Notes under the pieces: model-generated
Database searches by the model: none
What the model was told of the DNA's origin: nothing
What the model saw: the letters and a program-made list of their open reading frames with translations, nothing else
Assembly (NCBI GenBank): GCA_023267655.1
Contig: JAHFMV010000003.1
Coordinates: 16,522 to 80,521, forward strand
Length of the DNA: 64,000 nucleotides
Direction: 5' to 3'
Origin: Candidatus Kaiserbacteria bacterium
Lineage (GTDB): Bacteria > Patescibacteriota > Minisyncoccia > Phycocordibacterales > UBA2100
Shown: one piece after another, positions 1,003 to 64,000 of the stretch
Numbering within the stretch: position 1 is the first letter of the stretch
Layout of the letters: every line of letters starts with the position of its first letter
Made by a program: the position numbers and the translations under genes

Positions 1003-1035
1003 CATCTCACTCAAACCCAAACAGCGGGGCGCGAT

Positions 1036-1154
1036 AGATGTCTTTGCTTCGAGAGAACATCGCGCAGCAGATACTAAAGCGTGATGTCATACAGCAGTAG
1101 ATGTGACGTTAAAGCGTCCGCTCAGTTCGTGTTCGGTCCGAAGCAAAGACATCT
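1036..1154. repeat. copy 1 of a ~110-nt conserved 3'-proximal element (core GAGAACATCGCGCAGCAGATA...GTGATGT.ATACAG.AGTAGATGTGACGT...CAGTTCGTGTTCGG) closed by a 16-bp perfect inverted repeat (agatgtctttgcttcg / cgaagcaaagacatct)
   Basis: Near-identical core also at 5741-5863 and, reverse-complemented, at 12815-12925. Lies between the stop of the 1174-2694 gene and the terminator. Confidence 0.7.
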
Positions 1155-1173
1155 GTCGCGCCAACGTCAACCT

Positions 1174-2731: not shown

Positions 2732-3382
2732 CTACTTTAGATTCCTCAGCGCGGCTGTTGAGCGCAGGGTGAATTGGTTCGGCAACCGATTCGGATTGAT
2801 GTTAACGACGATCGTCGCTTGGACGAACCGCACTTCCGCGATTTTCGAGAGATCATTCATGAGCGTGCCATTCTGATCATAATACTGGAACATCAAGACA
2901 TTCTGTTCCGTGTTGCGCACATTGTCAGAAACGGTTGAGATCGTCTCCGGATTGGTATAAACCGGCGGATCGCTTGACGGATCAATGACACCGCGCATCA
3001 GAGAATTTCCTTGGAGAAAGAACCGCACTTGCTCGAGAAACGCATCGTCGTCAATGTCCGCATAAAATGAAAAGCTCGAGGTCGCCATCGAAATGATCGG
3101 CCACGCGCCATTCGAGGAATACGCGGCCTCGCGAATGGTCTTGATCATGCTCTCCATGCCGTGTTGCCCCGACGTGATCGCCGCGCCTTGCTCGACGGTG
3201 TACGTATTGGTGCGATAAAACGCTTGTACGGTTTGCGTGATCGCGAGCATGATCATCGTCGTGATCGCGACCCACACCATCGTTTCGAGCAAACTGATGC
3301 CACGGGAAGCGCGGCAGCCACTAGCGACTAGCCAATAGCCACTAGGGGAATGCTTGGATGCTTTTTTGATTTTGGATTTCAT
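2732..3382 (-). CDS. type IV pilin-like protein with prepilin-type leader (RG|ISLLETMVWVAITTMIMLAI)
   Basis: Class III signal-peptide motif G-ISLLE followed by a hydrophobic helix. The unusually long 28-aa leader is partly encoded by the TAGCCACTAG repeat. Confidence 0.6.
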   Translation of the reverse strand: MKSKIKKASKHSPSGYWLVASGCRASRGISLLETMVWVAITTMIMLAITQTVQAFYRTNTYTVEQGAAITSGQHGMESMIKTIREAAYSSNGAWPIISMATSSFSFYADIDDDAFLEQVRFFLQGNSLMRGVIDPSSDPPVYTNPETISTVSDNVRNTEQNVLMFQYYDQNGTLMNDLSKIAEVRFVQATIVVNINPNRLPNQFTLRSTAALRNLK

Positions 3383-3407
3383 ACTAGTGGCTAGTCGCTA
3401 GTGGCTA
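3317..3407. repeat. inverted pair of family-A repeats (agccactagcgactagccaatagccactagg 3317-3346; ctagtggctagtcgctagtggcta 3384-3407) bracketing the pilin start codon at 3380-3382
   Basis: Read directly from the sequence; same motif family recurs at 11480, 22043, 33670/33774, 40515/40553, 55017/55085. Confidence 0.7.
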
Positions 3408-5650: not shown

Positions 5651-5740
5651 GACTGTCCTCCATCGATTGCCTATTTCCAATGTCCACACTAACCCTACCC
5701 GAACGGTGCACAAAACTCAACACAACCACTAAGGAGCGAT

Positions 5741-5863
5741 GGCGTGAAAAATGCTTCGAGAGAACATCGCGCAGCAGATAGTAATACGTGATGTAATACA
5801 GTAGTAGATGTGACGTAAAAGCCACTGATCAGTTCGTGTTCGGGTTGAAGCATTTTTCACGCC
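5741..5863. repeat. copy 2 of the ~110-nt conserved element, closed by 17-bp perfect inverted repeat ggcgtgaaaaatgcttc / gaagcatttttcacgcc
   Basis: Core near-identical to 1052-1135; lies directly 3' of the pilC stop (5877). Confidence 0.7.
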
Positions 5864-5876
5864 ACCGCGACACGCT

Positions 5877-7133
5877 CTAGATATTGTCCGAGAGTTGGTA
5901 GATCGGGCTGATCATCGCGACTGCAAAGAAGCCGACGGCTGCACCGATCGCAAGCATAAGGAATGGCTCAATGATCGTCGACATGTCTTTCGTCTTCCGA
6001 TCCACTTCGTCTTCGTAAAAGACTGCAAGCTTTTTCATCATCTCGGTCAACTGCCCTGTCTCTTCGCCGACCGCAATCATCTCGCCCACAAATGCCGGGT
6101 ATAAATGCTCCGCGCGCACAAAAGCGCTCGAGAGCGGCTCACCTTTTGAAATATTTTCCTTCGCCTGCCCGATGACTTTCTTGAAATAATGATTCTGCAC
6201 AACGTCTTGCACGATCTCGAGCGAGGTCACCACATCCACGCCGCTCGAGAGAAGCGACGCGAGTGTCCGCGCCGTGCGCGCCGCATTCACCTCTTTCACG
6301 ATCGGCCCAATGATCGGAATGTGCAAAAAGACGAAATCCTTTGCGCGCCCGCCCGCTTCAGTGCGAAGCGCGGTATAGATGCCCCCGACGCCGATTATGA
6401 GAATTGAGAACGCAAGAATCGTGTACTCGACGAGGAAATTCGATACCGCGATGATTGCGCGGGTCGAAGCCGGCAGTTGCGCCCCCATTTCCTTAAACGT
6501 CGAGGCAAGCGTCGGAACAACATTGATCATCATAAAGGTACCGATGCCGAGAATCGCACAGACGATGATGATCGGATAGAGCATCGCACCACGAATTTTC
6601 TTCTTCAAGACATACATCCGCTCCATCTGGTCGGAGGTGACGACGAGTGCTTGCGGCATCTCACCGCCTTCCTCGCCCGCGCGCACCATCGCGACAAACA
6701 GTTTGGAGAAAACATGCGGGAATTTTGCCGCAGCAGAATGCAGTGTCTCACCGCGGCGCACCGCGCCCGATAATTCCGCAACCACGCTGCCGAGCCGCGG
6801 GTTTTTCGTCTGGCGCTCTATGACCGCAAGTGCTCGCGCAAGCGAAAGTCCCGCAGAGAGCATCGCGCCCAAGTTGCGCGAGAAGAGAATCTTCTCGTAT
6901 TCCGGCACCGTCGTTATTTTTGAATTCCAATACTGGAGGCTGAAGACGCCGTGCCTCTTTTCTTCGTCAACCGCGAGGATGCGGCCGCCTTCATGCCGCA
7001 CTATTTCGTACAACTCAAACCGATCGCGCGCCTGCGCGGTCCCTTTATATACTTCCCCGTCGCTTTTTTCCGCCGTGTATGAAAATCTCGCCACAGAATC
7101 AGTATACCGTATTCCGTATACAGTATTCCGCAA
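5877..7133 (-). CDS. pilC: type IV pilus assembly platform protein PilC (GspF family)
   Basis: Two GspF-type repeats and three TM segments; N-terminus ARFSYTAEKSDGEVYKGTAQARD typical of PilC. The first ~11 codons (TTG start at 7133) overlap an inverted-repeat arm, so the true start may be the GTG near 7094. Confidence 0.8.
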   Translation of the reverse strand: MRNTVYGIRYTDSVARFSYTAEKSDGEVYKGTAQARDRFELYEIVRHEGGRILAVDEEKRHGVFSLQYWNSKITTVPEYEKILFSRNLGAMLSAGLSLARALAVIERQTKNPRLGSVVAELSGAVRRGETLHSAAAKFPHVFSKLFVAMVRAGEEGGEMPQALVVTSDQMERMYVLKKKIRGAMLYPIIIVCAILGIGTFMMINVVPTLASTFKEMGAQLPASTRAIIAVSNFLVEYTILAFSILIIGVGGIYTALRTEAGGRAKDFVFLHIPIIGPIVKEVNAARTARTLASLLSSGVDVVTSLEIVQDVVQNHYFKKVIGQAKENISKGEPLSSAFVRAEHLYPAFVGEMIAVGEETGQLTEMMKKLAVFYEDEVDRKTKDMSTIIEPFLMLAIGAAVGFFAVAMISPIYQLSDNI

Positions 7134-7543
7134 AATGCACTATGTACGAATTCGATTTGGCGCCGTGCGGATTAATCCCGTCAACATTTGCGACACGGTT
7201 TCGGCTTTCTTTTCAAGTGCAGTAAAAGAATCGCGGGAAATATATTCCAAATCGCGTGCGATGAGTAACTGGCTCCTCAACTCTGAAAGTGAAGCGAGCG
7301 AAGTCGTATAAAAATTGATCTTGTCATTTTTCGTCTGCCGCACGAATCCCTCTGCAATATTTGAAGTAACAGAAACTGCGGCGCGGCGGATCTGACTGGT
7401 TAATCCGAAAAGTTCATCTTTTGGAAAAGTCTTGCTGGCTGTATATATCTCAAGAACAAGCGAGTGACCTTCTTGCCAAACACGTAAGTCCGTAAAACGC
7501 TGGATCATGGTGCGGTATACGGAATACTGTATACGGTATACGC
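7100..7543 (-). other. cassette: four-helix-bundle gene bracketed by ~31-bp inverted repeats (cagtataccgtattccgtatacagtattccg 7100-7130; gcggtatacggaatactgtatacggtatacgc 7512-7543) in the pilC-pilB intergenic position
   Basis: Arms are reverse complements over about 20 of 22 core positions. The right arm abuts the pilB stop (7544); the left arm overlaps the annotated pilC start. Confidence 0.65.
7140..7508 (-). CDS. four-helix-bundle protein of the 23S rRNA intervening-sequence protein family
   Basis: MIQRFTDLRVWQEGHSLVLEIY...AVSVTSNIAEGF matches the family's conserved N-terminal pattern (compare paralog at 54115). ORF-track start (GTG 7547) is encoded by the repeat arm, so ATG at 7506-7508 is preferred. 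Confidence 0.7.
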   Translation of the reverse strand: MIQRFTDLRVWQEGHSLVLEIYTASKTFPKDELFGLTSQIRRAAVSVTSNIAEGFVRQTKNDKINFYTTSLASLSELRSQLLIARDLEYISRDSFTALEKKAETVSQMLTGLIRTAPNRIRT

Positions 7544-9286
7544 TCACTCCGTAATCACACGCAACACCTCTTCAATAGTAGTAACTCCTTGCGAGGCTTT
7601 AAAAATCCCGTCTTCGATCATCGTGAGCATTCCCTCGCTGCGTGCTTGTTTTTCAATTTCATCCGCGGTCGCATTTTTCATCACATGCTCCTTAATGGTT
7701 GCAGTAACCGGGAGGACTTCATAGATACCGCGACGACCCGCGTACCCTTCCGGACACTCTGCCGTCGGCCCTGGTTTATAAAACGGCACGGTTTTCCAGG
7801 TCGCATTTGCGGCGACGATCTTCTCGTCTTTCAGTGCCTTGAGGACGACGCCGGCATCCAACGTGCTCTCAAGCTGCGTCTGTTCGTCGCGCGAGAGTTC
7901 GTACTTTTCGTGGCTTGGGCAGAGCATGCGCACGAGGCGCTGTCCTATGACAACGCGCAGAGTCGAGACGAGGAGGAACGGCTCGATGCCCATATCGAGG
8001 AGACGCGGGATGGCTCCTGCCGCAGAATTCGTGTGCAAAGTAGAAAGCACAAGGTGGCCGGTGAGCGCCGCATTGATCGCGAGTGATGCGGTTTCCTTAT
8101 CACGAATTTCCCCCACCATAATGATGTCGGGATCTTGGCGCACGAGCGAACGCAACCCGTTGGCAAACGTAAATCCAATATCCGGGCGCACCTGCGTCTG
8201 GTTCACCCGCTTCATTTGATACTCAATCGGATCTTCGACCGTGGAAATATTCACATCCGGCGTATTCAAAAGATCGAGAATCGTATAGAGCGTGGTGGAT
8301 TTGCCGGCGCCGGTCGGACCCGTCGTTAAGATGAGGCCGGTCGTTTGTTTCATCGCGCCATGCATTTGCTCCAAACCTGATCCGTGGAATCCGAGCGCTT
8401 CGAGCGAAAAGCCCGCGACATTATCACGCAAGAGGCGCATCACGATCTTTTCGCCGTAGTACGTCGGCAAAATAGAAACACGAAACGAAATTTTCTCACC
8501 GCCCGCTTCGACGCCAAAGCGTCCGTCCTGCGGCAATCTTTTTTCATCGAGCCGCATGTTGCCGAGGACTTTAATGCGCGCAGTGATTGCGGGCGCAGCG
8601 TGTTTCGGCAATTCCATCGCATCATGCAAGATGCCGTCGATGCGGTAACGGATGAGGAGCGATTCTTCGAGAGGCTCGATATGGATATCAGATGCATTTT
8701 GCGCGTTCGCGTGGCGCAAGAGCGTATCAACGATGCGCACAGCACTCACTCCCTCCGCCATCTGTCGCAAGTCTTCTTGCTTTGCGTCCGCACTTCCTGT
8801 TTTCGCAAGCGCATCGGTCTCGCGCTTGATGACATCGCCGAGATTGTCTTTGAGACCACGCTGGTACTGCTTGAGTGCGAGTTTCACCGACGCAGCGTCA
8901 GTGAGACGCGGCAAGATTTTCAAATGCGTTTTCTTCTTAATGAAATCGATCGCGGCGAGATCGTCAGTATCGAGCATCGCCACCTCGAGCTGCTCGTCTT
9001 TGTGGCTGTAGGCAATGATCGAATTGTGCCTTGCGACCGGTTCGGGAATGAGGGAGAGCGTTTCAAATGGAATCTGCTGCCCTGCGAGCGAGACAAACGG
9101 GATGCCGAGGATGTATGCGTAGGTGCGACGCAGTTCGTCCTCGCCAATTTTATTCTCCGCGATGAGAATATCCCCAATCGGTTTCCCGCGCTCTTTCGCC
9201 TCACGCTCGGCGGCCTCAAAATCTTTGTTCGAGATGAGCCCCGCGTCGGCGAGAAACGATTTTAAATGGGTATCAGAAATGTACAT
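7544..9286 (-). CDS. pilB: type IV pilus assembly ATPase PilB (GspE family)
   Basis: N-terminal GspII-type domain, Walker A GPTGAGKSTTLY, Walker B and His-box regions; 580 aa. Confidence 0.9.
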   Translation of the reverse strand: MYISDTHLKSFLADAGLISNKDFEAAEREAKERGKPIGDILIAENKIGEDELRRTYAYILGIPFVSLAGQQIPFETLSLIPEPVARHNSIIAYSHKDEQLEVAMLDTDDLAAIDFIKKKTHLKILPRLTDAASVKLALKQYQRGLKDNLGDVIKRETDALAKTGSADAKQEDLRQMAEGVSAVRIVDTLLRHANAQNASDIHIEPLEESLLIRYRIDGILHDAMELPKHAAPAITARIKVLGNMRLDEKRLPQDGRFGVEAGGEKISFRVSILPTYYGEKIVMRLLRDNVAGFSLEALGFHGSGLEQMHGAMKQTTGLILTTGPTGAGKSTTLYTILDLLNTPDVNISTVEDPIEYQMKRVNQTQVRPDIGFTFANGLRSLVRQDPDIIMVGEIRDKETASLAINAALTGHLVLSTLHTNSAAGAIPRLLDMGIEPFLLVSTLRVVIGQRLVRMLCPSHEKYELSRDEQTQLESTLDAGVVLKALKDEKIVAANATWKTVPFYKPGPTAECPEGYAGRRGIYEVLPVTATIKEHVMKNATADEIEKQARSEGMLTMIEDGIFKASQGVTTIEEVLRVITE

Positions 9287-9294
9287 AGGGATGA

Positions 9295-9362
9295 GGTTCT
9301 AGGTTCTAGGTTCTAGGTTCTAGGGAATCCGAAGTCCTCTGCAACCTTGCACCTTAAACCTG
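9295..9362. repeat. tandem heptamer (GGTTCTA x ~4.5) plus a family-B-like segment, 9 nt upstream of the pilB start codon
   Basis: gaggttctaggttctaggttctaggttctaggg then ctctgcaaccttgcaccttaaacctgacacctaa. On the pilB coding strand this reads CCTAGAACCT x4 immediately before the ATG. Confidence 0.65.
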
Positions 9363-9456
9363 ACACCTAATTTGTCATGCGCAGATTGATTATAGCAAGA
9401 TTTGGATGTAAGGTTGCGGCAGTCGCCACAGGGTCGCGACAAACAGGGAGATTCAC

Positions 9457-11315: not shown

Positions 11316-11479
11316 GTGGCGCGGGCGCGACCGGTTCCCGGTCGCGCCCTTCAATTTTTGTTGACATCTACAATGAGGCGTGTATACTCCTTCCTACAGC
11401 TGCATACAGCGATGTATTCAGTCCGGCGAGAGCCGGACGTTTTTAATAAACAGCTGTGCATTAGTATTATTGAATTAAC

Positions 11480-11507
11480 CTATTGGCTATACCCTAGTGG
11501 CTAATTA
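11480..11507. repeat. family-A repeat unit (ctattggctataccctagtggctaatt) 9 nt upstream of the nusA ATG
   Basis: Shares the ATTGGCTA / CTAGTGGCTAAT modules with the other family-A copies. Confidence 0.55.
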
Positions 11508-11515
11508 CTATCCCT

Positions 11516-12769: not shown

Positions 12770-12973
12770 TTCAAAACCGACGCCGCGGAAAAGTGTCCGC
12801 TCGCGGCGCTCGGCGGTGTTCCTCCCACCCGAACACGAACTGATCAACGGATCGAATATCACATCTACTACTGTACGTCATCACGTATTGTTATTTGCTG
12901 CGCGATGTTCTCTGGGAGGAATACCGCCTATCGCCGTCTCGCTCCCTCTTCCGTCGGCGTTTGAGGTTTTGAA
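12770..12973. repeat. copy 3 of the ~110-nt conserved element (core 12815-12925, reverse-complement orientation on the plus strand) with extended imperfect outer inverted repeat
   Basis: Reverse complement of 12828-12912 aligns with cores at 1052-1135 and 5759-5845. Lies 7 nt after the nusA stop and before a terminator-like hairpin. Confidence 0.65.
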
Positions 12974-14359: not shown

Positions 14360-15118
14360 ATGTCAAATTACACCGTAGCCACTTTCTTATCAGCCGCTAT
14401 TCTCTCATTACTCCTCACCGTGCCGTTTTCTCTTGCGCACGCCGAAGACGTCTCTGTTGATGCAAACGCGGGAGCGCCCCTCCCCCCAGGTCCTTTGCGC
14501 CCGTTGGATATTTTAAAAATGAAACTGAACGCGGCGGCGCATGGTGCAAAAGACGAAAAGACCCAACTGCGTGTGGACACGAAAATCCAACTTCAGAACG
14601 CGAGTACGTCTGGCGAGAAACATGACATCCGTGTGGACGCGCTCGGCGAGCGCAAAGATATTGCAAAAGATCGCTTCGCCTCGACGACACAGGCGATCAG
14701 CCAATTCAAAATGATGGTGCGTATCCATGGCGGCCTGATCAGACAGCGCTTTGTGATCGCGATCAACCAGCTGGAAAACCTCCTCGCCCGCATACAGACG
14801 CGACTCGATAAGATGCAGGCGGCGGGCGTGGACGTGACTGCGGTCGTTGCGCTGAAAGTAGATGCGCAAGCGGCGAGTGACAAGGCGAAAGCTGATGGGA
14901 AGGCCGTTGCGGATTTCATTGCGAATGTGAGCGACACCGATGATCGCGCAACGGTGAAGACCGCTCTCGAAACGAAGATCAAAACCGCACAAGCATCCAT
15001 AAAAGCCGCGCACGAGGCCGTGATGAAAGTAGTCCGTGCGCTGGTACAACTCGCGAAAGATAACAAGGACAAACTCAAGGTCGAGAGCGATGTTTCCGCT
15101 ACCACTTCTGTGCAATAA
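14360..15118 (+). CDS. secreted Ala/Lys-rich coiled-coil-like hypothetical protein
   Basis: Signal peptide MSNYTVATFLSAAILSLLLTVPFSLAHA (internal ATG at 14360 preferred over the ORF-track start at 14207). Confidence 0.4.
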   Translation: MSNYTVATFLSAAILSLLLTVPFSLAHAEDVSVDANAGAPLPPGPLRPLDILKMKLNAAAHGAKDEKTQLRVDTKIQLQNASTSGEKHDIRVDALGERKDIAKDRFASTTQAISQFKMMVRIHGGLIRQRFVIAINQLENLLARIQTRLDKMQAAGVDVTAVVALKVDAQAASDKAKADGKAVADFIANVSDTDDRATVKTALETKIKTAQASIKAAHEAVMKVVRALVQLAKDNKDKLKVESDVSATTSVQ

Positions 15119-15125
15119 TGTATTC

Positions 15126-15157
15126 ACCTAGAACCTAGTCCCTAGAACCTAACACCT
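15126..15157 (+). repeat. family-B leader motif (cctagaacctagtccctagaacctaacacct) ending 6 nt before the ATG at 15164
   Basis: Same CCTAGAACCTAACACCT module as at 54486, 55850 and, on the minus strand, 9295-9325. Confidence 0.6.
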
Positions 15158-15163
15158 ATCTTT

Positions 15164-22041: not shown

Positions 22042-22042
22042 T

Positions 22043-22067
22043 AGCGACTAGCCAATAGCCACTAGGA
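22043..22067. repeat. family-A repeat unit (tagcgactagccaatagccactagg) directly after the hup stop
   Basis: Identical to 3322-3346. Confidence 0.6.
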
Positions 22068-26536: not shown

Positions 26537-26569
26537 ATTCCCAAGTAAGGCGACCAGCCGTATTGGCAG

Positions 26570-26675
26570 AAGGCAAAAAATGCTTCACGAGGGTCTTCGC
26601 AGCGGCGTCGGGCGCGAGACCGAGCGCTGGCGCAGCAGCGCCAGATAGCGACCCGAGGGAAGCATTTTTTGCCTT
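26570..26675 (+). other. long hairpin: 17-bp perfect inverted repeat aaggcaaaaaatgcttc / gaagcattttttgcctt enclosing a 72-nt GC-rich interior
   Basis: Shares the AAAAATGCTTC...GAAGCATTTTT closing stem and the GCGCAGCAG / CAGATAG words with the ~110-nt 3' element family; lies 34 nt after the cca stop. Confidence 0.5.
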
Positions 26676-26703
26676 TTGCCACAAACATACAAAGCAAAAG
26701 CCG

Positions 26704-33404: not shown

Positions 33405-33671
33405 ATGCTGACGAAGCGAAAGAAGCAAAACGAAATCGGCAAGGTTAAGCGCCACGACACTGATACCGGCTCGCCGGAGGTGCAAGTCGCGCTCTTGACC
33501 CGCCGTATCGAAGAGCTCTCGGCACATTTGGATAAGAATCGTAAGGACAAAAGCTCCCGTCGCGGACTTTTGGGGCTCGTGGCTGATCGCCGCAAGCATT
33601 TGAAATACCTTGAGTCTACCAACAAGCGCTCGTATTCAGCGCTCACGAAGAAGCTCGGATTAAAAAAATAG
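33405..33671 (+). CDS. rpsO: 30S ribosomal protein S15
   Basis: Full-length S15 pattern (KRHDTDTGSPEVQVALLTRRIEELSAHL...RRGLLGLVADRRKHLKYL). Confidence 0.9.
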   Translation: MLTKRKKQNEIGKVKRHDTDTGSPEVQVALLTRRIEELSAHLDKNRKDKSSRRGLLGLVADRRKHLKYLESTNKRSYSALTKKLGLKK

Positions 33672-33800
33672 CGACTAGTGATTAGCCACTAGGAAATGCG
33701 GGCTCTCCAAATCGTCAGCTATAATCTGCATAGAGCAGATTTTTAGAAGCATTATCAGTTTTTATATTGAATTCACTAGTGGCTAATCGCTAGTGGCTAA
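33670..33800. repeat. inverted pair of family-A repeats (agcgactagtgattagccactagg 33670-33693; cactagtggctaatcgctagtggctaa 33774-33800) with an 80-bp AT-rich spacer, ending 6 nt before the ATG at 33807
   Basis: Read directly from sequence. Confidence 0.7.
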
Positions 33801-33806
33801 CAAACT

Positions 33807-34406
33807 ATGAGCATTATCAAACATCCGGAACAACGTGTTGGGGTCTTTATTGATACTCAAAACGTCTACCATAGTGCGAAAAACATCTATCACGCACGCG
33901 CCAATTTCGGCAACATCCTCAAGGATTCTGTCGCCGGTCGTCGCCTCATCCGCGCGCGCGCCTATTCCGTTACGACGGAAACAGGTGAAGAAAAGGGGTT
34001 TTTTGAAGCCTTGGCCAAAATCGGCATCGAAATGCGCCTCAAAGACCTCCAGGTCTTCTACGGTGGCGCCAAGAAGGCTGATTGGGACGTCGGATTGGCA
34101 GTTGATGCCATTACCGCCGCTCCGAAGCTCGATACCGTCATCCTTGTCACCGGCGACGGCGATTTCGTCCCGCTCGTCCAATACCTCCAGACCCATGGCG
34201 GCTGTCAGGTAGAAGTCGTCTCCTTTGGCCGCTCAACTTCGGGAAAACTCAAAGAAGCAGCCGACGATTTCCTCGATCTCGACGCCGACCCTCGCCGCTA
34301 CATCATGGGCTTTCGCGGCGGCTCCCGCCGCCCAAGCTCTCGCGGAGCACAAAACGCACCGTCCGAAATGTCGGACGAGATGGAAAAAGAGATGGGAGTG
34401 GAATAG
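33807..34406 (+). CDS. NYN-domain (LabA-like) putative ribonuclease
   Basis: VFIDTQNVYHS...WDVGLAVDAI...DTVILVTGDGDFVPLV matches the NYN/LabA pattern. Confidence 0.65.
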   Translation: MSIIKHPEQRVGVFIDTQNVYHSAKNIYHARANFGNILKDSVAGRRLIRARAYSVTTETGEEKGFFEALAKIGIEMRLKDLQVFYGGAKKADWDVGLAVDAITAAPKLDTVILVTGDGDFVPLVQYLQTHGGCQVEVVSFGRSTSGKLKEAADDFLDLDADPRRYIMGFRGGSRRPSSRGAQNAPSEMSDEMEKEMGVE

Positions 34407-40514: not shown

Positions 40515-40575
40515 TTAGCCACTAGCCACTAGGGGAAAGGCGGACTGAATTTCCTATTGGCTAGTGGCTAGTGGC
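40515..40575. repeat. inverted pair of family-A repeats (ttagccactagccactagggg / cctattggctagtggctagtggc) with 17-bp spacer
   Basis: Read directly; ends 24 nt before the ATG at 40600. Confidence 0.7.
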
Positions 40576-40599
40576 TTTTTGTTCATGTATTATAGGGCG

Positions 40600-54077: not shown

Positions 54078-54510
54078 GTGACAGGTTCCAGGTGTCAGGT
54101 TTTAGGGAAAATACATGGATAAAATTCGATCGTACAAAGATCTTATTGTTTGGCAGAAAGCGATTGGCGTTGTCACTGACGTGTATCTAACGACCAAGAA
54201 ATTTCCTTCAGAAGAGCGATTTGGACTTTCTTCACAAATGCAACGCGCGGCTGTTTCGATAGCTGCAAACATTGCAGAAGGACACGGGCGTGGAACACGA
54301 AGTGACTATGCTCACTTTTTGGATATGTCAAATGGCTCGGTATCCGAATTGGAGACGCTCTTCATCATTGTCAGAAAACTATCATATTGTTCGGACGAAC
54401 AATGTAGTAAAATAGAAGGACAGTTACATGAAGTTGGGAAGATGCTTGGATCTCTCCGAAGTAAGTTACGTGTTCGCCCCTAGCACCTAGAACCTAACAC
54501 CTGGAACCTA
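54074..54510 (+). other. cassette: four-helix-bundle gene bracketed by family-B inverted repeats (aggttccaggtgtcaggttttagg 54084-54107 versus cctagaacctaacacctggaacct 54485-54508)
   Basis: Arms are reverse complements at ~20 of 22 positions. The insert 54108-54484 is almost exactly the 369-bp gene. Confidence 0.7.
54115..54483 (+). CDS. four-helix-bundle protein of the 23S rRNA intervening-sequence protein family (second copy)
   Basis: MDKIRSYKDLIVWQKAIGVVTDVY...AAVSIAANIAEGHGR parallels the 7140-7508 paralog. Confidence 0.7.
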   Translation: MDKIRSYKDLIVWQKAIGVVTDVYLTTKKFPSEERFGLSSQMQRAAVSIAANIAEGHGRGTRSDYAHFLDMSNGSVSELETLFIIVRKLSYCSDEQCSKIEGQLHEVGKMLGSLRSKLRVRP

Positions 54511-54515
54511 ATTCT

Positions 54516-55022
54516 ATGCAATTCCAAGTTCCCCAGTTCATTGAGGTCGAGGACAAGATCTTTGGGCCTCTCACCTTCAAACAATTCGTCTACATCGCAG
54601 GAGGCGCCGGCTGCGGCTATCTGCTGTGGCGCGTTCTTCCTATTTACCTCGCCGCCCCCCTTATCGCCGGCGTCGTCGGCCTCGGCGCGGGGTTGGCCTT
54701 CTTCAAATACAACGGCCAGCCCTTTATCCTCGCCCTCGAGCATGGTTTTTTCTTCTTTGTACGCAGCAAGCTCTACCTCTGGAGCAATGAAGTGCGCGAT
54801 ACTACGAAAAAGAAAGATCTCGCGGCACAAATAGCCGCTCCCGCAGCACAGATTTACGTCCCGAAGCTCTCCGACGGCAAGCTGCACGAGCTCGCGTGGA
54901 GTCTCGACATCAAAGAGCGCATCGCAGGAGGAACTGCCGATGACGACGAGCGCGCAGACAGCTCACCACTGAAGGGCATCATCGCGCCCGTCCGTACCGC
55001 GCGTGAGGCGCTCATTAACTAG
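54516..55022 (+). CDS. PrgI-family (VirB3-like) T4SS membrane protein
   Basis: MQFQVPQFIEVEDKIFGPLTFKQFVYIAGGAG followed by two TM helices matches the PrgI family N-terminal pattern. Confidence 0.55.
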   Translation: MQFQVPQFIEVEDKIFGPLTFKQFVYIAGGAGCGYLLWRVLPIYLAAPLIAGVVGLGAGLAFFKYNGQPFILALEHGFFFFVRSKLYLWSNEVRDTTKKKDLAAQIAAPAAQIYVPKLSDGKLHELAWSLDIKERIAGGTADDDERADSSPLKGIIAPVRTAREALIN

Positions 55023-55115
55023 CCAATAGCCACTAGGTATTTGCCACTAGAAAATGCATATGAATCCAAAAATTTCCTTAATGTATTGGCCAGTGGCTAG
55101 TCGCTAGTGGCTAAT
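55017..55115. repeat. inverted pair of family-A repeats (taactagccaatagccactagg ... attggccagtggctagtcgctagtggctaat) ending 10 nt before the ATG at 55126
   Basis: Read directly; the spacer contains CATATGAAT..TTCC, also seen in the 55820-55850 spacer. Confidence 0.7.
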
Positions 55116-55125
55116 AACTATTTTT

Positions 55126-55800
55126 ATGCCTGAAACCGTCACCTCAACAAAGCCGACCAGCAAATCGACACAGCAATTTGTGCCGGTTTCCGAAGTGCGC
55201 GACGGTATCTTGATCCTCAAGGACAAGAGCCTGCGTGCGATCCTTCTTGCGTCGTCGATCAATTTTGCGCTTAAATCTGAAGACGAACAGACGGCGTTTA
55301 TCGTGCAATTCCAAAACTTTCTCAACTCGCTCGACTTTTCGTGCGAAATTTTCGTGCAATCGCGCATGCTCGACATCCGCCCGTACATTGCATCCCTCGA
55401 GGTCGCCTACAAAGGGCAGCTCGACGACCTTATGCGCATCCAAATTCGCGAATACATCGAATTCATCAAGAGCTTTACCGAGGCCGCGAACATCATGACG
55501 AAAAATTTCTTCGTCGTCGTCCCGTATTCGTCGACGGCGATTTCGCTTTCCGGCAGTGGCGGCATCGCGGGGAAATTACCGTTTGGACGCAAAAAAAATA
55601 CGGCAGAGGATGCGAACCGTTCGTTTGAAGAGCAGGTCTCACAGCTTGAGCAACGCATTTCGATCGTGCAGCAGGGTCTCGTGCGCTGCGGCGTACGCAC
55701 CGTGCAGCTTGGAACCGAAGAGGCGATCGAACTGATGTACAAACTCTTCAACCCGGGCGAAGAAGGGAAGCCGATGACGCTGGATGCAGGTGCCAGGTGA
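55126..55800 (+). CDS. VirB4/TrsE-like N-terminal domain encoded as a separate ORF
   Basis: FVPVSEVRDGILILKDKSLRAILLASSINFALKSEDEQ resembles the N-terminus of Gram-positive-type VirB4 ATPases; stop codon lies inside a family-B repeat arm. Confidence 0.45.
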   Translation: MPETVTSTKPTSKSTQQFVPVSEVRDGILILKDKSLRAILLASSINFALKSEDEQTAFIVQFQNFLNSLDFSCEIFVQSRMLDIRPYIASLEVAYKGQLDDLMRIQIREYIEFIKSFTEAANIMTKNFFVVVPYSSTAISLSGSGGIAGKLPFGRKKNTAEDANRSFEEQVSQLEQRISIVQQGLVRCGVRTVQLGTEEAIELMYKLFNPGEEGKPMTLDAGAR

Positions 55801-55879
55801 CAGGTTCCAGGTTACAGTAAAATATAAATACAATACATCATATGAATTTCCTAGAACCTAACACCTGGAACCTGTAACC
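55794..55879 (+). repeat. family-B inverted pair (ggtgacaggttccaggt 55796-55812 / acctggaacctgtaacc 55861-55877) with 48-nt AT-rich loop, separating the two VirB4 ORFs
   Basis: 17-bp stem with one mismatch; forward arm CCTAGAACCTAACACCTGGAACCT ends 5 nt before the ATG at 55882. Confidence 0.65.
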
Positions 55880-55881
55880 TT

Positions 55882-58800
55882 ATGGCTTTATTGGATCTTT
55901 TCAAAAAATCTTCGGTCCCCGCGGCGACGGTGCTGCCGGTCCTTCCGGAAGAAATCTACCGCACTGGCGTCCTCGGCCTCCAGGACGTGATCGCACCGCA
56001 CGCACTTCGCGTCTCGCCGCGCGAGCTCGACCTTGGCGAAAAAATCGCGCGCACGTTTTTTGTGATCTCATACCCGCGCTTCCTCACGACGGGGTGGTTT
56101 GCGCCGATCATCAACATGGACAAGGTGCTCGACATCGCGATTTTCATCCATCCGATGGACACGAACGAAATGCTGCGCAAATTTCAGAAAAAAGTCGCCG
56201 AGGTGCAAAGTCAGATCGCGACGCGTGAGGAAAAGGGGATGGTGCGCGACCCAATGCTCGATACCGCATATCAAGACCTCGAAAAATTGCGCGACTCTCT
56301 GCAACAAGCGCAGGAACGCATTTTTGATGTCGGACTCTACCTCACGATCTACGGCTCGAGCCGCGAAGAAATAGATAAGGTAGAGAGCGAAATCCGCTCG
56401 ATCCTCGAGAGCCGCCTCGTGTACATCCGCCCGGCACTTTTCCAGCAAGAACAAGGCTTCCGCTCGACGCTCCCGATTGCGACCGATGAATTAAACGTCC
56501 ACACGAAACTCAATTCGGCGCCGCTCTCGTCCATCTTCCCGTTTATTTCATTCGACCTAACGTCCGACAGGGGAATCCTTTACGGCATCAACCGCCACAA
56601 TTCGTCACTTATTTTGTTCGATCGATTTTCTTTGGAGAATTATAATTCGGTCACTTTCGCAAAGTCGGGAGCAGGTAAGAGCGTCTGCTACGAAGAGCCC
56701 GTTTTGACACGTGAAAGCGGAATCATACGTTATGCGCCAATTGGTCAAGTGGTGGAAAAAACTATTAAAAAACATGGTTGCAGAAAGATTGACGACGAGT
56801 TAGAGGGAGTTATCGATCCGGGTATTGAAGTGTTCAGTTTTGATCAAGACATGCGGGGGCGTTGGAGTAAAGTATCGGTCGCTGCACGAAAAGATGCCCC
56901 AGATACATACTACGCATTCAGGACAAAAAGCGGCCGCGAGGTAACAACTACTGCTGATCACAACATGCTAGTCTTACGACGCGGGAAAGTTATTGCCGCG
57001 AAAAGTGAAAATGTGAAAGAGGGAGAGTATATTCCTCTGCCGCGCAGCGTGCATCCATCCCTGCACTCCCCCCGTCATATAGGATCTAGCCTCTTGCCGG
57101 TAACAGAACATCTCAGTTCTGTCCTTGGTTGGATCGCAGCAGAAGGGACTATCGCGAAACGCTCGATCATTATCAGCAACACCGATCAGGAATCACTGTC
57201 ACACATTGAAAATGAATGTCGAGCCCTCGGTTTTTCCTGCGGCAGCAACAAGCGGTGGGTTGCCATTTATGGCAAACGTGTCTGTGAACAGCTAAAAGCC
57301 CTTGGCGCAACGGGAAAATCCGGTACTAAAACAGTCCCCGGATTTCTTTTTAACACGTCGCGCGATGTGGTCGCCTCATACCTGCAAGCGTATTTCGAAG
57401 GTGATGGCGGTGTAGAAAATCACGAAATTACTGCGCTTTCAAAGTCGAAAGAGCTGATATCAGGGCTTTCGTATTTGTTGTACTACTTCGGCATTATTGC
57501 GCGGATACAGAAGCGGCAGAAGAAATACGCGAAGACGGGACGCAAAAGGACATTCTGGATGCTTAGCATTTCAGGTCAGGATAATATCCGGAAATTCCAA
57601 GAGCACATCGGCTTTATTTCGACGCGAAAAAAGGAGGCCCTCGCGAAAATCGCCGTTAAAAACGGAAATACCAACTGCGATATCGTGCCGGGACTACAAC
57701 CGCTTGCGAAAGAGCTTGAACTCCTTTTCGATACGCAGCTGTCGGACATATCCGACTTCTCCGCGCTCAAGCAGGGTCACGGCCTCTCGCCGACTCGGCT
57801 CGGAACACTTGTCGATACAATGGAGGCGCGCGTGCGGCGGTTCAAGGACTTGTATCCTTTCATGCAGAAATTGCAGGATCTGCCGACTGTTGAAGCGATT
57901 ATCAAAAAAGCTGATGGAGATCGCGATTTGAATCACAGGCTTATTGAAACAATGAGCAGCTCATGGTTTACGGTCAAGCAAGGAATGCCACCACGAACGA
58001 AAAATGCGCTGAAAATCTTTGAAACTGCAGGTGTCGAAGCTCCAAAAACCATCGACGAATTAAAGGGGATGGTGGAGAGCGGCGTCTCGAATTTGCGCGT
58101 CCCGAGGAGCGATTTTGATGAGTACCTTACGAGATCCCTGCATGGTACTCGCGACAATTCGTCGTACGAACTCCTACGCACCGCATCACAATTTATTTTT
58201 TGGGAGTACCGCCGCACGCTACACAACTTGCATCGCGTCGAAGAAATCATCGCTATGTTTAAGACGCTCGTGAACGCCGACCTTTTCTGGGATCCGATTG
58301 TTTCTATCGTGAAAAAGGCCAACAAAAAAGACAAGTATGTATACGACCTCACCGTTGACGACGAAGTGTTCCTCGCGGGACACGGCGGCATGTTCGTGCA
58401 CAATTCATATACGACGAAGCTTGAGATTCTGCGCTCTTTAATGTTCGATACGGAAGTCATCGTCATCGACCCGGAACGCGAATACGAATATCTCGCGACG
58501 ACCGTCGGCGGCCGCTACTTCAACATTTCACTCTCCTCCGAACACCATATCAATCCGTTTGATCTCCCCATCCCACGTGAAGACGAGAACCCCGGCGACA
58601 TTTTGCGCAACAACATCATTACGCTCGTTGGCCTCTTCCGCATCATGCTCGGCGGACTTACGCCAGAAGAGGACGCCGTCATCGACAAGGCGATTACGGA
58701 AACCTACGCACTCAAAGACATTACGCAAGACGCGAATTTCGCCTCTATCGAGCCGCCGCTCCTCTCCGACTTTGAACTGGTCTTAAGCGGCATGGAAGGA

Positions 58801-59685
58801 TCAGAATCACTCGTCGCGCGCCTTTCGAAATATACGAAAGGCACGTGGTCGGGATTCATGAACCGCCCGACCAACGTCGATATGAACAAAAAACTTACGG
58901 TCTTTTCCGTGCGCGATATGGAAGATGATTTGAAGCCGGTCGCGATGTACATCATTACACACCACATTTGGAACACGGTAAGGAAAGAACTGCGAAAGCG
59001 CCTGCTTGTGATCGACGAGGCGTGGTGGATGATGAAATCGCAAGACACGGCGAGCTTCCTTTTCGGTATTGCAAAGCGCGGCCGTAAATACTATCTCGGT
59101 CTCTCGACGATTACGCAGGACGTCAACGACTTTCTCACCTCACCGTACGGCGCGGCGATGATCACGAACTCATCAATTCAGCTCCTTCTGCGCCAATCAC
59201 CGACGTCGGTTGATCTTGTACAAAGCACGTTCAAATTGACTGATGAAGAAAAGTATTTGCTCCTCGAATCCGACGTGGGGGAGGGGATTTTCTTCGCCGG
59301 ACTGAAGCATGTTGCCATCAAAGTCATCGCCTCGTACACCGAAGACCAAATCATTACCTCCGATCCGTCGCAAATCCTCGCTATCAAGAAAGCAAAAATG
59401 GATCTCGCTTCTGCAAACGATACAAGCGCACCTGCCGCACCACGACAGAGCGCCGCTGATATCTTAAAAGCCGCGGCCATGAAGGAATCGAGCGGTATCG
59501 CGCAGCAGGCCGCTACCGAGGCACTACCAACGCAAACACCAGCGGCAAGCACAGAATCCGACAATCCGCTTCCACCGCCCCCAACACCGACTCCTACTCC
59601 ACCGCCCTCGCCTGTCGCGCCTGCACCTGCGGCACCCACCGCGCCCTCGCTTCCACCCGAAGCAAATCCTGATCGTCCGGTATGA
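55882..59685 (+). CDS. VirB4/TraE-like T4SS ATPase (extein ~694 aa) interrupted by an in-frame 573-aa intein
   Basis: Walker A FAKSGAGKS immediately before the intein; C-extein SYTTKLEILRSL...LLVIDEAWWMMKS (DEAW Walker-B-like) and conserved VirB4 C-terminal region; Pro-rich tail. Confidence 0.8.
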   Translation: MALLDLFKKSSVPAATVLPVLPEEIYRTGVLGLQDVIAPHALRVSPRELDLGEKIARTFFVISYPRFLTTGWFAPIINMDKVLDIAIFIHPMDTNEMLRKFQKKVAEVQSQIATREEKGMVRDPMLDTAYQDLEKLRDSLQQAQERIFDVGLYLTIYGSSREEIDKVESEIRSILESRLVYIRPALFQQEQGFRSTLPIATDELNVHTKLNSAPLSSIFPFISFDLTSDRGILYGINRHNSSLILFDRFSLENYNSVTFAKSGAGKSVCYEEPVLTRESGIIRYAPIGQVVEKTIKKHGCRKIDDELEGVIDPGIEVFSFDQDMRGRWSKVSVAARKDAPDTYYAFRTKSGREVTTTADHNMLVLRRGKVIAAKSENVKEGEYIPLPRSVHPSLHSPRHIGSSLLPVTEHLSSVLGWIAAEGTIAKRSIIISNTDQESLSHIENECRALGFSCGSNKRWVAIYGKRVCEQLKALGATGKSGTKTVPGFLFNTSRDVVASYLQAYFEGDGGVENHEITALSKSKELISGLSYLLYYFGIIARIQKRQKKYAKTGRKRTFWMLSISGQDNIRKFQEHIGFISTRKKEALAKIAVKNGNTNCDIVPGLQPLAKELELLFDTQLSDISDFSALKQGHGLSPTRLGTLVDTMEARVRRFKDLYPFMQKLQDLPTVEAIIKKADGDRDLNHRLIETMSSSWFTVKQGMPPRTKNALKIFETAGVEAPKTIDELKGMVESGVSNLRVPRSDFDEYLTRSLHGTRDNSSYELLRTASQFIFWEYRRTLHNLHRVEEIIAMFKTLVNADLFWDPIVSIVKKANKKDKYVYDLTVDDEVFLAGHGGMFVHNSYTTKLEILRSLMFDTEVIVIDPEREYEYLATTVGGRYFNISLSSEHHINPFDLPIPREDENPGDILRNNIITLVGLFRIMLGGLTPEEDAVIDKAITETYALKDITQDANFASIEPPLLSDFELVLSGMEGSESLVARLSKYTKGTWSGFMNRPTNVDMNKKLTVFSVRDMEDDLKPVAMYIITHHIWNTVRKELRKRLLVIDEAWWMMKSQDTASFLFGIAKRGRKYYLGLSTITQDVNDFLTSPYGAAMITNSSIQLLLRQSPTSVDLVQSTFKLTDEEKYLLLESDVGEGIFFAGLKHVAIKVIASYTEDQIITSDPSQILAIKKAKMDLASANDTSAPAAPRQSAADILKAAAMKESSGIAQQAATEALPTQTPAASTESDNPLPPPPTPTPTPPPSPVAPAPAAPTAPSLPPEANPDRPV
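56686..58404 (+). mobile_element. intein with LAGLIDADG homing-endonuclease domain inserted in the VirB4 P-loop
   Basis: Block A CYEEPVLTRESGIIRYAPIGQVV (Cys1 at 56686), block B TTTADHNMLV, DOD motifs LGWIAAEGTI and LQAYFEGDGGV, block F/G KYVYDLTVDDEVFLAGHGGMFVHN followed by Ser+1 (58405). Confidence 0.75.
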
Positions 59686-63295: not shown

Positions 63296-63413
63296 CAGAT
63301 AATTTTCAATTCTCAATTTTCAGTGAATTTTCAATGTTCCAATGTTTGAAAATTGATTCATTCGAACTTGAATGAAAATTTGAAATTGATAATTGATAAT
63401 TGATAATTGAAAA
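63296..63413. repeat. AT-rich repetitive spacer (TTTTCAAT words, GATAATTGA x3 tandem, palindrome cattcgaacttgaatg) between yidC and jag
   Basis: Read directly from sequence. Confidence 0.6.
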
Positions 63414-64000
63414 TTAGTCTGATTTCTTATCCCCAAATCGTCGTCCCATGAAAAGTTCCTGCCCAATCATAAAGAGGTTTGAGGTCGTCCAGTAGAGAGG
63501 TACGGCGGCAGAAACCGTAAATGCAATGCCCGCGACGATAAGCGGGAGGATGTAGCGCGCCTGGAGGTCGAAACTCTTGGCCATGTCATTTGAAAACGAT
63601 TGCTCTACGGGCGACGTGGCCATTTGGTTGCGAGGTCCCATGGAGAGACGCGCGTAGGTCAGTTGCGTGAGACCCGCGAGTGCAGCAAGAAGAATGCTTT
63701 TCTTTCCCATGTCGATAAGTCCGAGAAACTCCATGTTAAACATTTTCGGGACCGGAACGAACGAATACAAAAGGTCGGGATTGACGTGGGGAAGACCGCC
63801 GCGGCCGAAGACCCAATAGAGGCCGAGGAGGATTGGGAATTGGATGAGAATGAGAAAAAATGAAGAAAACGGCCGAATGCCGCGTTCTTTGTAGAGGGCA
63901 AAAATTGCTTTTGCCTGTTCGTCTTGTTTATCTTTGTATTTTGTTTTAATCGCTTCAATGTTCGGCGCAATCGCCTTCATCGCCATTTGCGTGCGGATCG
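63414..64000 (-). CDS. yidC: membrane protein insertase YidC, partial (N-terminus beyond window end)
   Basis: Conserved YidC/Oxa1 core ...IKTKYKDKQDEQAKAIFALYKERGIRPFSSFFLILIQFPILLGLY...; the reading frame stays open to position 64000. Confidence 0.8.
   Translation of the reverse strand, partial: IRTQMAMKAIAPNIEAIKTKYKDKQDEQAKAIFALYKERGIRPFSSFFLILIQFPILLGLYWVFGRGGLPHVNPDLLYSFVPVPKMFNMEFLGLIDMGKKSILLAALAGLTQLTYARLSMGPRNQMATSPVEQSFSNDMAKSFDLQARYILPLIVAGIAFTVSAAVPLYWTTSNLFMIGQELFMGRRFGDKKSD

Follow-up and report, generated by a model that had tools for sequence, protein, structure and literature searches.

Tandem 7-nt repeats have been noted as an excess of heptamers in bacterial intergenic DNA since the 1990s-2000s, and we know of no accepted origin or function for them. 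The heptameric arrays of cyanobacteria designated STRR were reportedly described by Mazel and co-workers in 1990. The element considered here lies at positions 33670-33800 of a 64,000-nucleotide stretch of a Candidatus Kaiserbacteria genome (contig JAHFMV010000003.1; the whole stretch is termed the window below), in the spacer between rpsO and a gene for a NYN-domain protein. An excess of heptameric repeats is known as a genome-wide bias of bacteria (Rehm et al. 2015, PMC4692102). The GGGAATC arrays of Xanthomonas, like those of the window, consist of degenerate tandem 7-nt units, usually in 3-5 copies, and are intergenic, with several families per genome; 70-75 cases of two close convergent arrays are recorded, often at most 50 nt from start or stop codons (PMC4692102). 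Direct TAACTGA repeats upstream of starts without a Shine-Dalgarno (SD) sequence have been reported in Beggiatoaceae, Cyanobacteria and Bacteroidetes, with a translational role proposed (MacGregor 2015, PMC4679880); their distribution is cross-phylum and their route of transfer unknown (PMC4679880). Heptamers near start codons are also described for Nostoc (bioRxiv 10.1101/2022.06.06.494920). Heptamer arrays, inverted pairs of them and their proximity to start codons are already published.

A second point of comparison is the intervening sequence (IVS) of 23S rRNA. The Coxiella IVS is a selfish element of 428 nt that carries an S23p open reading frame (ORF) and is bounded by a 28-bp terminal stem, which RNase III cuts mid-stem (PMC4990558). 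IVSs, which are known from Coxiella, Leptospira, Salmonella and others, are sporadic and selfish, and occur both as ORF-less forms of ~90-150 nt, which are plain extended stem-loops, and as long forms of ~430-760 nt with a PF05635/S23p ORF (PMC4990558). The reading favoured here, with a confidence that stops a little short of even, is that 33670-33800 belongs, as a copy with no ORF, to a dispersed class of stem-loop elements that fill the junctions between genes. PF05635 proteins are common, with solved structures and a resemblance to Avd of diversity-generating retroelements (DGRs), and we know of no role for the free-standing ones.

The target element is an inverted-repeat pair at 33669-33697 and 33771-33799, with 29 nt per arm, 86% complementarity and 73 nt between the arms. 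The upstream gene, rpsO (33405-33671, plus strand), encodes ribosomal protein S15 (PF00312, 2.4e-30), and its stop codon TAG (33669-33671) serves as the first unit of arm 1, which reads TAGCGAC, TAGTGAT, TAGCCAC and TAGG on the plus strand (33669-33693). Arm 2, on the same strand (33774-33800), is the half that is conserved across species; it opens with CA, continues as CTAGTGG, CTAATCG, CTAGTGG and CTAA, and its end is separated by 6 nt from the ATG at 33807 of the NYN-domain gene (33807-34406, plus strand), which follows rpsO in ~70 related contigs. The loop between these units (33694-33773) holds an inner hairpin, AATCTGC-ATAGA-GCAGATT (33728-33746), that runs into a T-run and was not called by a consensus terminator scan. 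It forms part of a core, TAnACT followed by the hairpin and TTTTATAA, which is also found in orthologous spacers without arms. As RNA the region is predicted to fold at -55.9 kcal/mol (z = -6.96). The element has no ORF of its own, as is the case for short IVSs, and no Rfam family matches it.

The arms belong to a repeat, family A, that the preliminary description of this DNA had placed at six loci. All six are present, with coordinates correct to within 1-3 nt, and the 10-mer TAGCCACTAG (at most one mismatch) matches 27 times in 64 kb against 0.96 expected, a number that none of 100 shuffles reaches; every match falls within these same six gene junctions. The repeat is nonrandom, intergenic and hairpin-forming, and lies just upstream of SD-less starts, as had been stated. 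What had been taken for a short module is instead a degenerate tandem heptamer array, TAGCCAC with its complement CTAGTGG, and so falls in a described class. Units on the TAG side are TAGCCAC, TAGCGAC and TAGCCAA, and those of the other arm are CTAGTGG, CTAGTCG and CTATTGG. Tandem Repeats Finder reports period 7 with 2.4-4.4 copies at every arm, and in a scan of the window this period is specific, with 14 arrays as opposed to 0-2 for the other periods among 4-12 and 0-1 in shuffled sequence. Identical 24-26-mers, with variant units in the same order, recur at separate loci around unrelated loops; for the six family-A copies, the arms alone can be aligned.

Four of the six copies are pairs. Besides the target, these include the minus-strand pilin locus, where one arm (3384-3407) starts 4 nt past the stop of a 587-aa gene, with the pilin ATG (3382) 1 nt further on in the loop, and the other (3315-3345) lies within the prepilin leader as residues SPSGYWLVAS, an element absent from the related contig L201. 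On the plus strand, arm 1 at 40516-40535 begins 10 nt past the stop of a 525-aa gene, and its partner at 40553-40577 is followed by TTTTTGTT and ends 22 nt before the ATG at 40600 of a DksA/YteA-like gene; this is the only terminator-like copy. The remaining pair, also on the plus strand, consists of 55017-55050, which has the PrgI stop TAG (55020-55022) in its first unit, and 55085-55115, which ends 10 nt before the ATG at 55126. The other two copies are lone plus-strand arms, one of CTA type in the nusA leader (11480-11507), 8 nt before the ATG at 11516, and one of TAG type (22042-22067) that immediately succeeds the hup stop and precedes a terminator-like hairpin and a tRNA gene. The claim that the forward arm always faces an ATG is automatic wherever the repeat is inverted, and carries information for the lone arms at nusA and hup alone. 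Likewise, the pairs do fold, as had been proposed, yet a hairpin abutting the ATG is not uniform, since two of the six loci have lone arms and one has the ATG in its loop.

The window has at least six heptamer families with this layout; besides family A they include the AGCGTCG, GTATACC, AGGTNNN/CCTAGAA (9293-9369, 15126-15158, 54085-54510 and 55787-55880) and AATTNTC families. The AGCTCGA/AGCGTCG-family pair on the minus strand (2637-2734) has an arm 1 (2704-2734) that begins with the pilin stop TAG, an ATG (2694) in its loop and an arm 2 (2637-2660) that provides codons 12-20 of a 506-aa gene. At 9293-9369, also on the minus strand, arm 1 of an AGGTNNN/CCTAGAA pair begins with a stop TAG (9369-9367), the loop is 10 nt, and arm 2, four copies of CCTAGAA, ends 6-7 nt before the ATG at 9286; array units are degenerate everywhere except here, at 9294-9324. 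The same family supplies a lone CTA-type array (15126-15158, plus strand), which fills a 45-nt spacer from the stop at 15116-15118 to the ATG at 15164, and an ORF-less plus-strand pair (55787-55880) whose arm 1 holds a stop TGA (55798-55800) and whose arm 2 ends 1 nt before the ATG at 55882. In the AATTNTC-family pair (63300-63416, minus strand), arm 1 begins with the YidC stop TAA (63416-63414), and arm 2 ends 54 nt before the ATG at 63245.

These copies all have a protein-coding gene on one side and either another such gene or a tRNA gene on the other, and the 13 junctions that bear arrays are without exception between same-strand genes, as opposed to 39 of 60 junctions overall (P ~0.004). 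Read on the gene strand, arm 1 starts 0-10 nt from the upstream stop codon, which is itself the first array unit at rpsO, PrgI, pilin, a 112-aa gene and YidC; in 9 of 11 cases the gap from the end of arm 2 to the next start codon is 1-22 nt. The exceptions are the 63300 arm, 54 nt from its ATG, and the pilin gene together with the next gene (ATG 2694), in which the loop contains the ATG and the second arm is part of the coding sequence. Arrays also extend into coding ends: the leader of the pilin, one N-terminal tail and the C-terminal end of a 224-aa gene. The pairs other than the target fold at -31 to -47 kcal/mol (z -3.6 to -6.0), all as long stems. An association with start codons had been claimed, and the arms are indeed near starts; because the partner arm is equally tied to the upstream stop codon, within 0-10 nt of it, a purely start-centred view does not hold, and these are junction elements rather than start-codon elements alone.

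Two long-range pairs in the window, with loops of 361 and 379 nt, each enclose one gene of PF05635, the “23S rRNA-intervening sequence protein” family. The first is a 441-nt minus-strand cassette (7102-7542) with GTATACC-family arms at 7513-7542 and 7102-7130 around a PF05635 gene at 7140-7508; it lies between T2SSE (stop 7544-7546) and T2SSF, whose GTG start lies ~7 nt past the arm. The second, of 426 nt on the plus strand (54085-54510), has arms that begin AGGTTCC (54085-54108) and CCTAGAA (54479-54510) and a PF05635 gene at 54115-54483. It separates a type IV secretion system gene from PrgI, with arm 1 lying 8 nt past the upstream stop and arm 2 ending 5 nt before the PrgI ATG at 54516. The two genes match PF05635 with E values of 3e-38 and 1e-37, and also the four-helix-bundle family TIGR02436, PDB 2GSC and 2RLD and, more weakly, the DGR Avd protein. 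The cassettes match the Coxiella and Leptospira IVSs in size and layout, the Coxiella element being 428 nt. Moreover, the 24-mer CCTAGAACCTAACACCTGGAACCT occurs both in the second cassette (54487-54510) and in an ORF-less pair (55857-55880), so that the arm module is common to both forms. An invertible cassette between T2SSE and T2SSF was considered and dropped, as the gene found there in L201 is unrelated and not inverted. Descent of the ORF-less spacers from decayed PF05635 genes was likewise rejected for want of residual similarity.

The association extends beyond the window. Every PF05635 ORF in the Kaiserbacteria-related and cross-phylum loci already collected is bracketed by inverted heptamer arrays, and the rpsO-NYN spacer itself holds such an ORF in contigs L161, L183 and L158 (frameshifted in the last). 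Family-A arms flank PF05635 genes in two unrelated metagenome-assembled genomes (L027 and L070). In Bacteroidota, a PF05635 gene stands between sdhA and sdhB three times with three different heptamers, of TTAGGCN, GAATAGN and ATTAGCG type (L204-206, L216-218 and L220-221); the sdhA-sdhB junction is a recurrent cassette site there, which parallels rpsO-NYN in Kaiserbacteria. The bracketed gene lies antisense within a moxR-DUF58 operon in Pirellulaceae, and bracketed PF05635 genes are found likewise in Parcubacteria and relatives of the PrgI cassette. With a score of at least 11 for flanking inverted period-7 arms taken as the criterion, 15 of 17 distinct bacterial PF05635 loci are bracketed, and arms are visible in 16, Brevundimonas having one array only. 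Among IMG/VR contigs the corresponding figure is 23 of 28 distinct loci, with a period-7 identity of 0.5-0.8 in the arms, whereas 14% of permuted flanks reach the threshold. Combined, 38 of 45 PF05635 loci from the candidate phyla radiation, Bacteroidota, Planctomycetota and virus-labelled contigs are bracketed, whereas the Kaiserbacteria set has 5 such cases among 248 genes outside PF05635 that encode 100-170 aa (Fisher P ~1e-36). The top three scores in that control scan all belong to PF05635 genes.

In the published table of Xanthomonas campestris repeats, GGGAATC repeat no. 15 is placed between bccP, 6 nt away, and XCC0516, whose start it overlaps (PMC4692102). XCC0516 is the PF05635 protein of PDB 2GSC, and the neighbouring repeat was left without comment by the authors of the table. 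No link between PF05635 and heptamer repeats was found in the literature searched. This link and the turnover of arms at orthologous sites, neither found in that literature, together with their codon-flush setting in the candidate phyla radiation, appear to be new. Many close PF05635 homologues were encountered on contigs of 0.6-2 kb, as would be expected if the flanking repeats break short-read assemblies.

Orthologous rpsO-NYN spacers were drawn from a metagenome scan with the NYN protein, which yielded 80 related contigs (915 kb), ~70 of them with the synteny kept. The proposed pairing of the arms is borne out by their co-variation, in that 18 of the 53 orthologous spacers with a length of 84 nt or more have complementary boundary arms, the figure for permuted pairs being 2%; these arms are built from at least seven heptamers (CTAGTGG, AGCTTCN, TAGGTTN, AGCTACN, AGATTCA, TTAGCTN, ACTATTT and others). 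Here too the distance between the stop and arm 1 is short, at 0-9 nt, and 6-9 nt usually separate the end of arm 2 from the ATG. The same arm positions are thus occupied by different heptamers in related Kaiserbacteria, and it is the architecture that is kept and not the sequence; some close relatives have a spacer without any arms. The period-7 signal reaches 0.36 at one end of the spacer and 0.43 at the other, as opposed to 0.30 in between, periods 5, 6, 8 and 9 being without effect, and arrays are found on the start-proximal side in 12 of 50 spacers and on the stop-proximal side in 6 of 50. In four species, the family-A arm 2 keeps 24-25 of 28 positions, nearly all differences falling in the four filler bases of the middle unit, while the third codon positions of NYN are 41-51% identical and arm 1 has decayed. 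Across the 80 contigs, a crude map restricted to ORFs of at least 100 aa, which misses genes the size of rpsO and is uninformative for that reason, gives 39 co-directional, 19 divergent and 11 convergent junctions.

Two further contigs allow finer comparison. In the syntenic L201, genes for 582-aa, pilin and 502-aa products are 1 nt apart (TGAtATG, TAAtATG), and the window has ~105 and 45 nt more at these junctions. For the prepilin leader, L201 has MQSTRG and the window has MKSKIKKASKHSPSGYWLVASGCRASRG, of which ten residues are encoded by the array (3315-3382, as compared with L201 2640-2680). The window leader is therefore 28 aa rather than 6 because the element was taken into the coding sequence, and the new pilin ATG and Lys-rich N-terminus are encoded by the loop of the element. 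In L200, which is 99.9% identical to the window, no indel is present in the nusA or 15126 arrays (one comparison). The rpsO-NYN core (33715-33750; contigs L120-L199) is a G-rich sequence with TAnACT, a short hairpin and TTTTATAA that is present even where heptamer arms are not; judged from its sequence, it may serve as terminator and promoter in one, or as a site of processing ahead of the NYN gene.

Family-A arrays are not confined to this clade. A scan with CTAGTGGCTANTSNCTA, one genome per species, returned at least 119 loci, and CTAGTGG arrays occur, among the matches listed, in Planctomycetota, Acidobacteriota, Cyanobacteria, Bacteroidota, Proteobacteria, Firmicutes, Patescibacteria and archaeal metagenome-assembled genomes. 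The 843 kb covered by these listed matches hold 306 period-7 arrays against 11-48 for other periods. An inverted downstream partner is found for 46 of 259 arrays across phyla, with 8 in the control, and most loops measure 25-100 nt. In a sample of 979 kb, intergenic positions account for 66 of 102 arrays, the background being 22.7%. The CTAGTGG array string was not found in the literature searched. Two generalizations about the units were rejected: that each heptamer is a 4-bp palindrome plus 3 nt, which is true of the window families and fails for AGATTCA, AGTGCTG, GAATAGN and others, and that TAG-containing heptamers act as translation stops in six frames, which holds for about half of the families.

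When set against the described systems, the target arms show every tested feature of the intergenic heptameric-repeat class, being tandem, degenerate, intergenic, of several families and arranged as inverted pairs. The window differs from Xanthomonas in that its units contain CTAG or TAG, whereas those of Xanthomonas form G-quadruplexes; orthologous-site turnover and the PF05635 link are seen here and have not been described for the Xanthomonas or STRR arrays. That the arms are flush with stop and start codons follows from the host, a member of the candidate phyla radiation with very short spacers. Like the TAACTGA leaders, the arrays bring heptamers (here CTANNNN) to within a few nt of the start codon, in one orientation and with no SD. 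The TAACTGA arrays, however, comprise 169 direct sets and 1 indirect, with a single heptamer per genome and no stop-anchored partner reported, whereas inverted pairs are found here. As for IVSs, the terminal inverted repeats of the target, 29 nt and 86% complementary, are in the range of an IVS stem (at least ~20 bp), and a PF05635 ORF is found in the class (7102-7542 and 54085-54510) and in the orthologous L161, L158 and L183 spacers. IVSs reside in helix 9, 25 or 45 of 23S rRNA and the window elements between protein-coding cistrons; because of this location, they are not classed as IVSs in the strict sense. RNase III excision is established for IVSs and would apply here by analogy.

Other palindromic elements provide a partial likeness. 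The Correia elements of Neisseria, the enterobacterial ERIC and the YPAL of Yersinia are said to be co-transcribed palindromes that resemble MITEs, or miniature inverted-repeat transposable elements, as reportedly set out by De Gregorio and colleagues in 2002-2006, and Correia hairpins are reportedly RNase III substrates that alter the stability of flanking cistrons. The window elements are similarly dispersed intergenic inverted repeats, often within operons, that would form hairpins in mRNA. They differ in having unrelated loops, heptamer arms and no visible target-site duplication, where Correia, ERIC and YPAL have a conserved interior and a duplication. Of the features of a MITE, terminal inverted repeats and presence/absence polymorphism were found, and a conserved internal sequence was not. 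At rpsO-pnp of Escherichia coli, an intergenic hairpin is said to be cleaved by RNase III, which governs expression of the downstream gene (work attributed to Portier and Regnier in the 1980s-1990s). The present locus also has a long stem-loop right after rpsO and before a gene for an RNA-metabolism enzyme, with the differences that the gene is of the NYN domain and not PNPase, and that the hairpin is made of heptamer arrays and varies with lineage. Nor do the arms look like a contingency simple sequence repeat, their units being degenerate and their copy number unchanged relative to L200 in the one comparison made.

Taken on the analogy with IVSs, the ORF-less pairs may be members of an IVS-like, probably selfish class of stem-loops at cistron junctions, a proposal that is held tentatively, at nearly even confidence. 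One array starts at the upstream stop and its inverted copy ends near the next start, with host signals or a whole small gene between them. Where the flanking genes are co-transcribed, the arms would pair into a helix of ~25-29 bp that RNase III could cut as it does IVS stems, and the polycistronic RNA would then be severed at the junction, making the insertion nearly harmless. Such harmlessness would allow selfish or neutral elements to persist, turn over and fill the scarce non-coding space of a compact genome. As a weaker suggestion, the start-proximal CTA-type array may have been co-opted as an SD-free leader for genes that are neither leaderless nor SD-led. The arms appear to form or to be exchanged in situ, about a spacer core that was already there, through slippage and inverted copying from a template and not through the insertion of a complete unit. 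Among the candidate roles put forward in the preliminary description, an RNase III site would be the one favoured. A broader proposal is that inverted heptamer arrays and the Avd-like four-helix-bundle PF05635 gene together make up an as yet unrecognized cross-phylum class of mobile intercistronic cassettes, in effect IVSs outside rRNA, with the ORF-less pairs as non-autonomous derivatives or landing sites and with the PF05635 protein making, maintaining or moving the arrays; this is doubtful at present, and rather unlikely in all its parts.

Several observations weigh against an IVS-like, selfish class. RNase III cleavage, and even co-transcription, are inferred. The loop hairpin and its T-run may terminate rpsO transcripts, in which case the two arms may rarely share one RNA. 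No RNase III (rnc) signature was seen in ~1 Mb of sampled Kaiserbacteria DNA, a contig sample that is uninformative on this point. Arm 2 is clearly better conserved than arm 1, and lone arrays of the arm-2 type exist (nusA, 15126), which suggests a host function with no need for pairing. Since the spacer core is present in orthologues without arms, the arms were not inserted together with it as one unit, and a target-site duplication is visible at neither of the two junctions for which L201 offers a comparison, the genomes having diverged. ORF-less spacers carry no PF05635 remnants. Outside the compact clade, flush anchoring to stop and start codons is weak (9 of 46 pairs as opposed to 15 of 191 shifted controls). 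Finally, the 7-nt length of the unit is left unexplained.

A first rival is a host translational device, in which the CTA-type array would be an SD-independent initiation leader, as proposed for TAACTGA in Beggiatoaceae (PMC4679880), and the TAG-type arm would either mask this leader until upstream translation or bring stop and start together for re-initiation. This unlikely but substantial alternative would fit the retention in arm 2 of 24-25 of 28 positions beside third codon positions at 41-51% identity. It would also fit arrays that reach to within 1-10 nt of SD-less start codons, the lone arrays before gene 15164 and before nusA (where the window and L201 both repeat CTA at a 7-nt spacing, with differing fillers), the twofold excess of start-side over stop-side arrays among orthologues, the co-direction of all 13 junctions, and the window stops and starts placed at the feet or in the loop of a helix where L201 has gaps of 1 nt. 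Heptamers nevertheless vary freely among families and lineages, so that no common ribosome- or protein-binding motif is evident, and many orthologues have no array at all. The PF05635 genes bracketed by such arms face either way relative to the host operon (L207), two loci have the ATG in the loop and a coding arm, the 63300 arm is 54 nt from its ATG, and the phase of the arrays relative to the ATG is inconstant. A mutational by-product would need no function, mobility or RNA processing: slippage, perhaps set by a polymerase footprint, and inverted copying by template switching would let arrays grow until they reach coding sequence. This is improbable as a full account, in spite of the period-7 excess in many phyla (306 against 11-48 among the matches listed; a known bias, PMC4692102), the encroachment on tolerant coding ends, the arms that surround a pre-existing core and a flushness that is largely an effect of the compact genome. 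It leaves unexplained the PF05635 association (38/45 as opposed to 5/248), the identical 24-26-nt modules with the same variant order at distant loci and the conservation of arm 2 beyond the level of synonymous sites, while degenerate units and an unchanged copy number in a 99.9%-identical assembly disfavour ongoing slippage.

Two narrower explanations are each very improbable. The preliminary description had suggested a regulator that recognizes a CTAG-containing palindrome, and a related possibility is the DNA-uptake sequence of a type IV pilus competence system; the strong over-representation of TAGCCACTAG, the inverted pairs in intergenic DNA and an arm 2 with two direct TAGTGGCTA repeats 14 bp apart, kept across species, would all accord with sites of one sequence-specific DNA-binding protein. 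DNA-uptake sequences of Neisseria occur as intergenic inverted pairs. The proposal founders on the presence of at least six unrelated heptamer families with the same layout in 64 kb, on orthologous sites built of different heptamers and on CTAGTGG arrays in many phyla (among the matches listed). Ordinary intrinsic terminators of the upstream genes would account for 40516-40577, where a tight hairpin has TTTTTGTT behind it, and many gene ends in these genomes carry normal terminator hairpins. The target itself has an 80-nt loop, no T-run after arm 2 and no consensus call on the plus strand, most pairs have a start codon directly behind them, two enclose whole genes, and lone arms exist.

The data hint at a single widespread selfish element as the source of the excess of 7-letter repeats that has long been noted in bacteria. 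If the PF05635 association holds, this excess and the role of free-standing PF05635 proteins become one testable question, and were the cassette reading true, it would explain both the intergenic 7-nt repeats (STRR and relatives) and PF05635 function. The genome of this tiny bacterium, poor in SD sequences and apparently for the most part leaderless, gives an unusually clean view of the matter, as its arms are flush with stop and start codons. On a practical level, arrays make coding ends longer or shorter, the pilin leader and a C-terminus being examples, and mislead the calling of start codons; they probably also break metagenome assemblies, many PF05635 homologues being found on contigs of ~1 kb.

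The expression context of the arrays was considered across 60 predicted starts. In 12 of 60 genes the first base of a TAnnnT box is exactly at -12 (e.g. TACAAT-N6-ATG and TATACT-N6-ATG), and SD cores are nearly absent across the window, which looks, from these signals, like part of a largely leaderless genome. Genes preceded by arrays have neither the box nor an SD core. Because SD sequences are rare nearly everywhere, the earlier remark that the array leaders lack them is correct, yet it is true of nearly the whole genome and not special to them. The end of arm 2 (GGCTAAT) was rejected as a -10 box of a leaderless mRNA since its sequence and spacing do not fit, genuine boxes lying exactly 6 nt before the ATG. 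An enrichment of TAG as the upstream stop was also dropped, TAG being already the commonest stop in the window (26 of 61). The NusA sequence assigns the window to Candidatus Kaiserbacteria (Paceibacterota, candidate phyla radiation). The nusA gene has a textbook promoter, TTGACA/TATACT, at 11361-11389, and a leader of ~110 nt (region 11361-11515). Its first 80 nt are conserved with L201 (9860-10000), whose NusA is 87% identical, and include a hairpin, TCCGGC-GCCGGA, followed by TTTTTAATAA. Judged on these features, the leader could be an attenuator or an autoregulatory leader; it has no match in Rfam. At the position of the lone array of the window, the L201 leader has a different array with CTA every 7 nt.

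A second repeat family in the window follows the opposite logic. Its copies, at 1028-1162 (plus strand), 5736-5868 (plus strand) and 12804-12936 (minus strand), share a conserved core of ~85 nt (GAGAGAACATCGCGCAGCAGATA...CAGTTCGTGTTCGG) within outer arms of 22-24 nt that differ from copy to copy yet remain complementary. In these arms 12 of 45 pairs are changed on both sides, and two copies start 11-14 nt past stop codons; the family has no match in Rfam. A pair at 26564-26681 has the arm motif AAAAATGCTTC in common with this second family and a different loop. Separately, the VirB4/TraG-like ATPase (1267 aa) encoded at 55882-59685 contains an intein with a LAGLIDADG homing-endonuclease domain.

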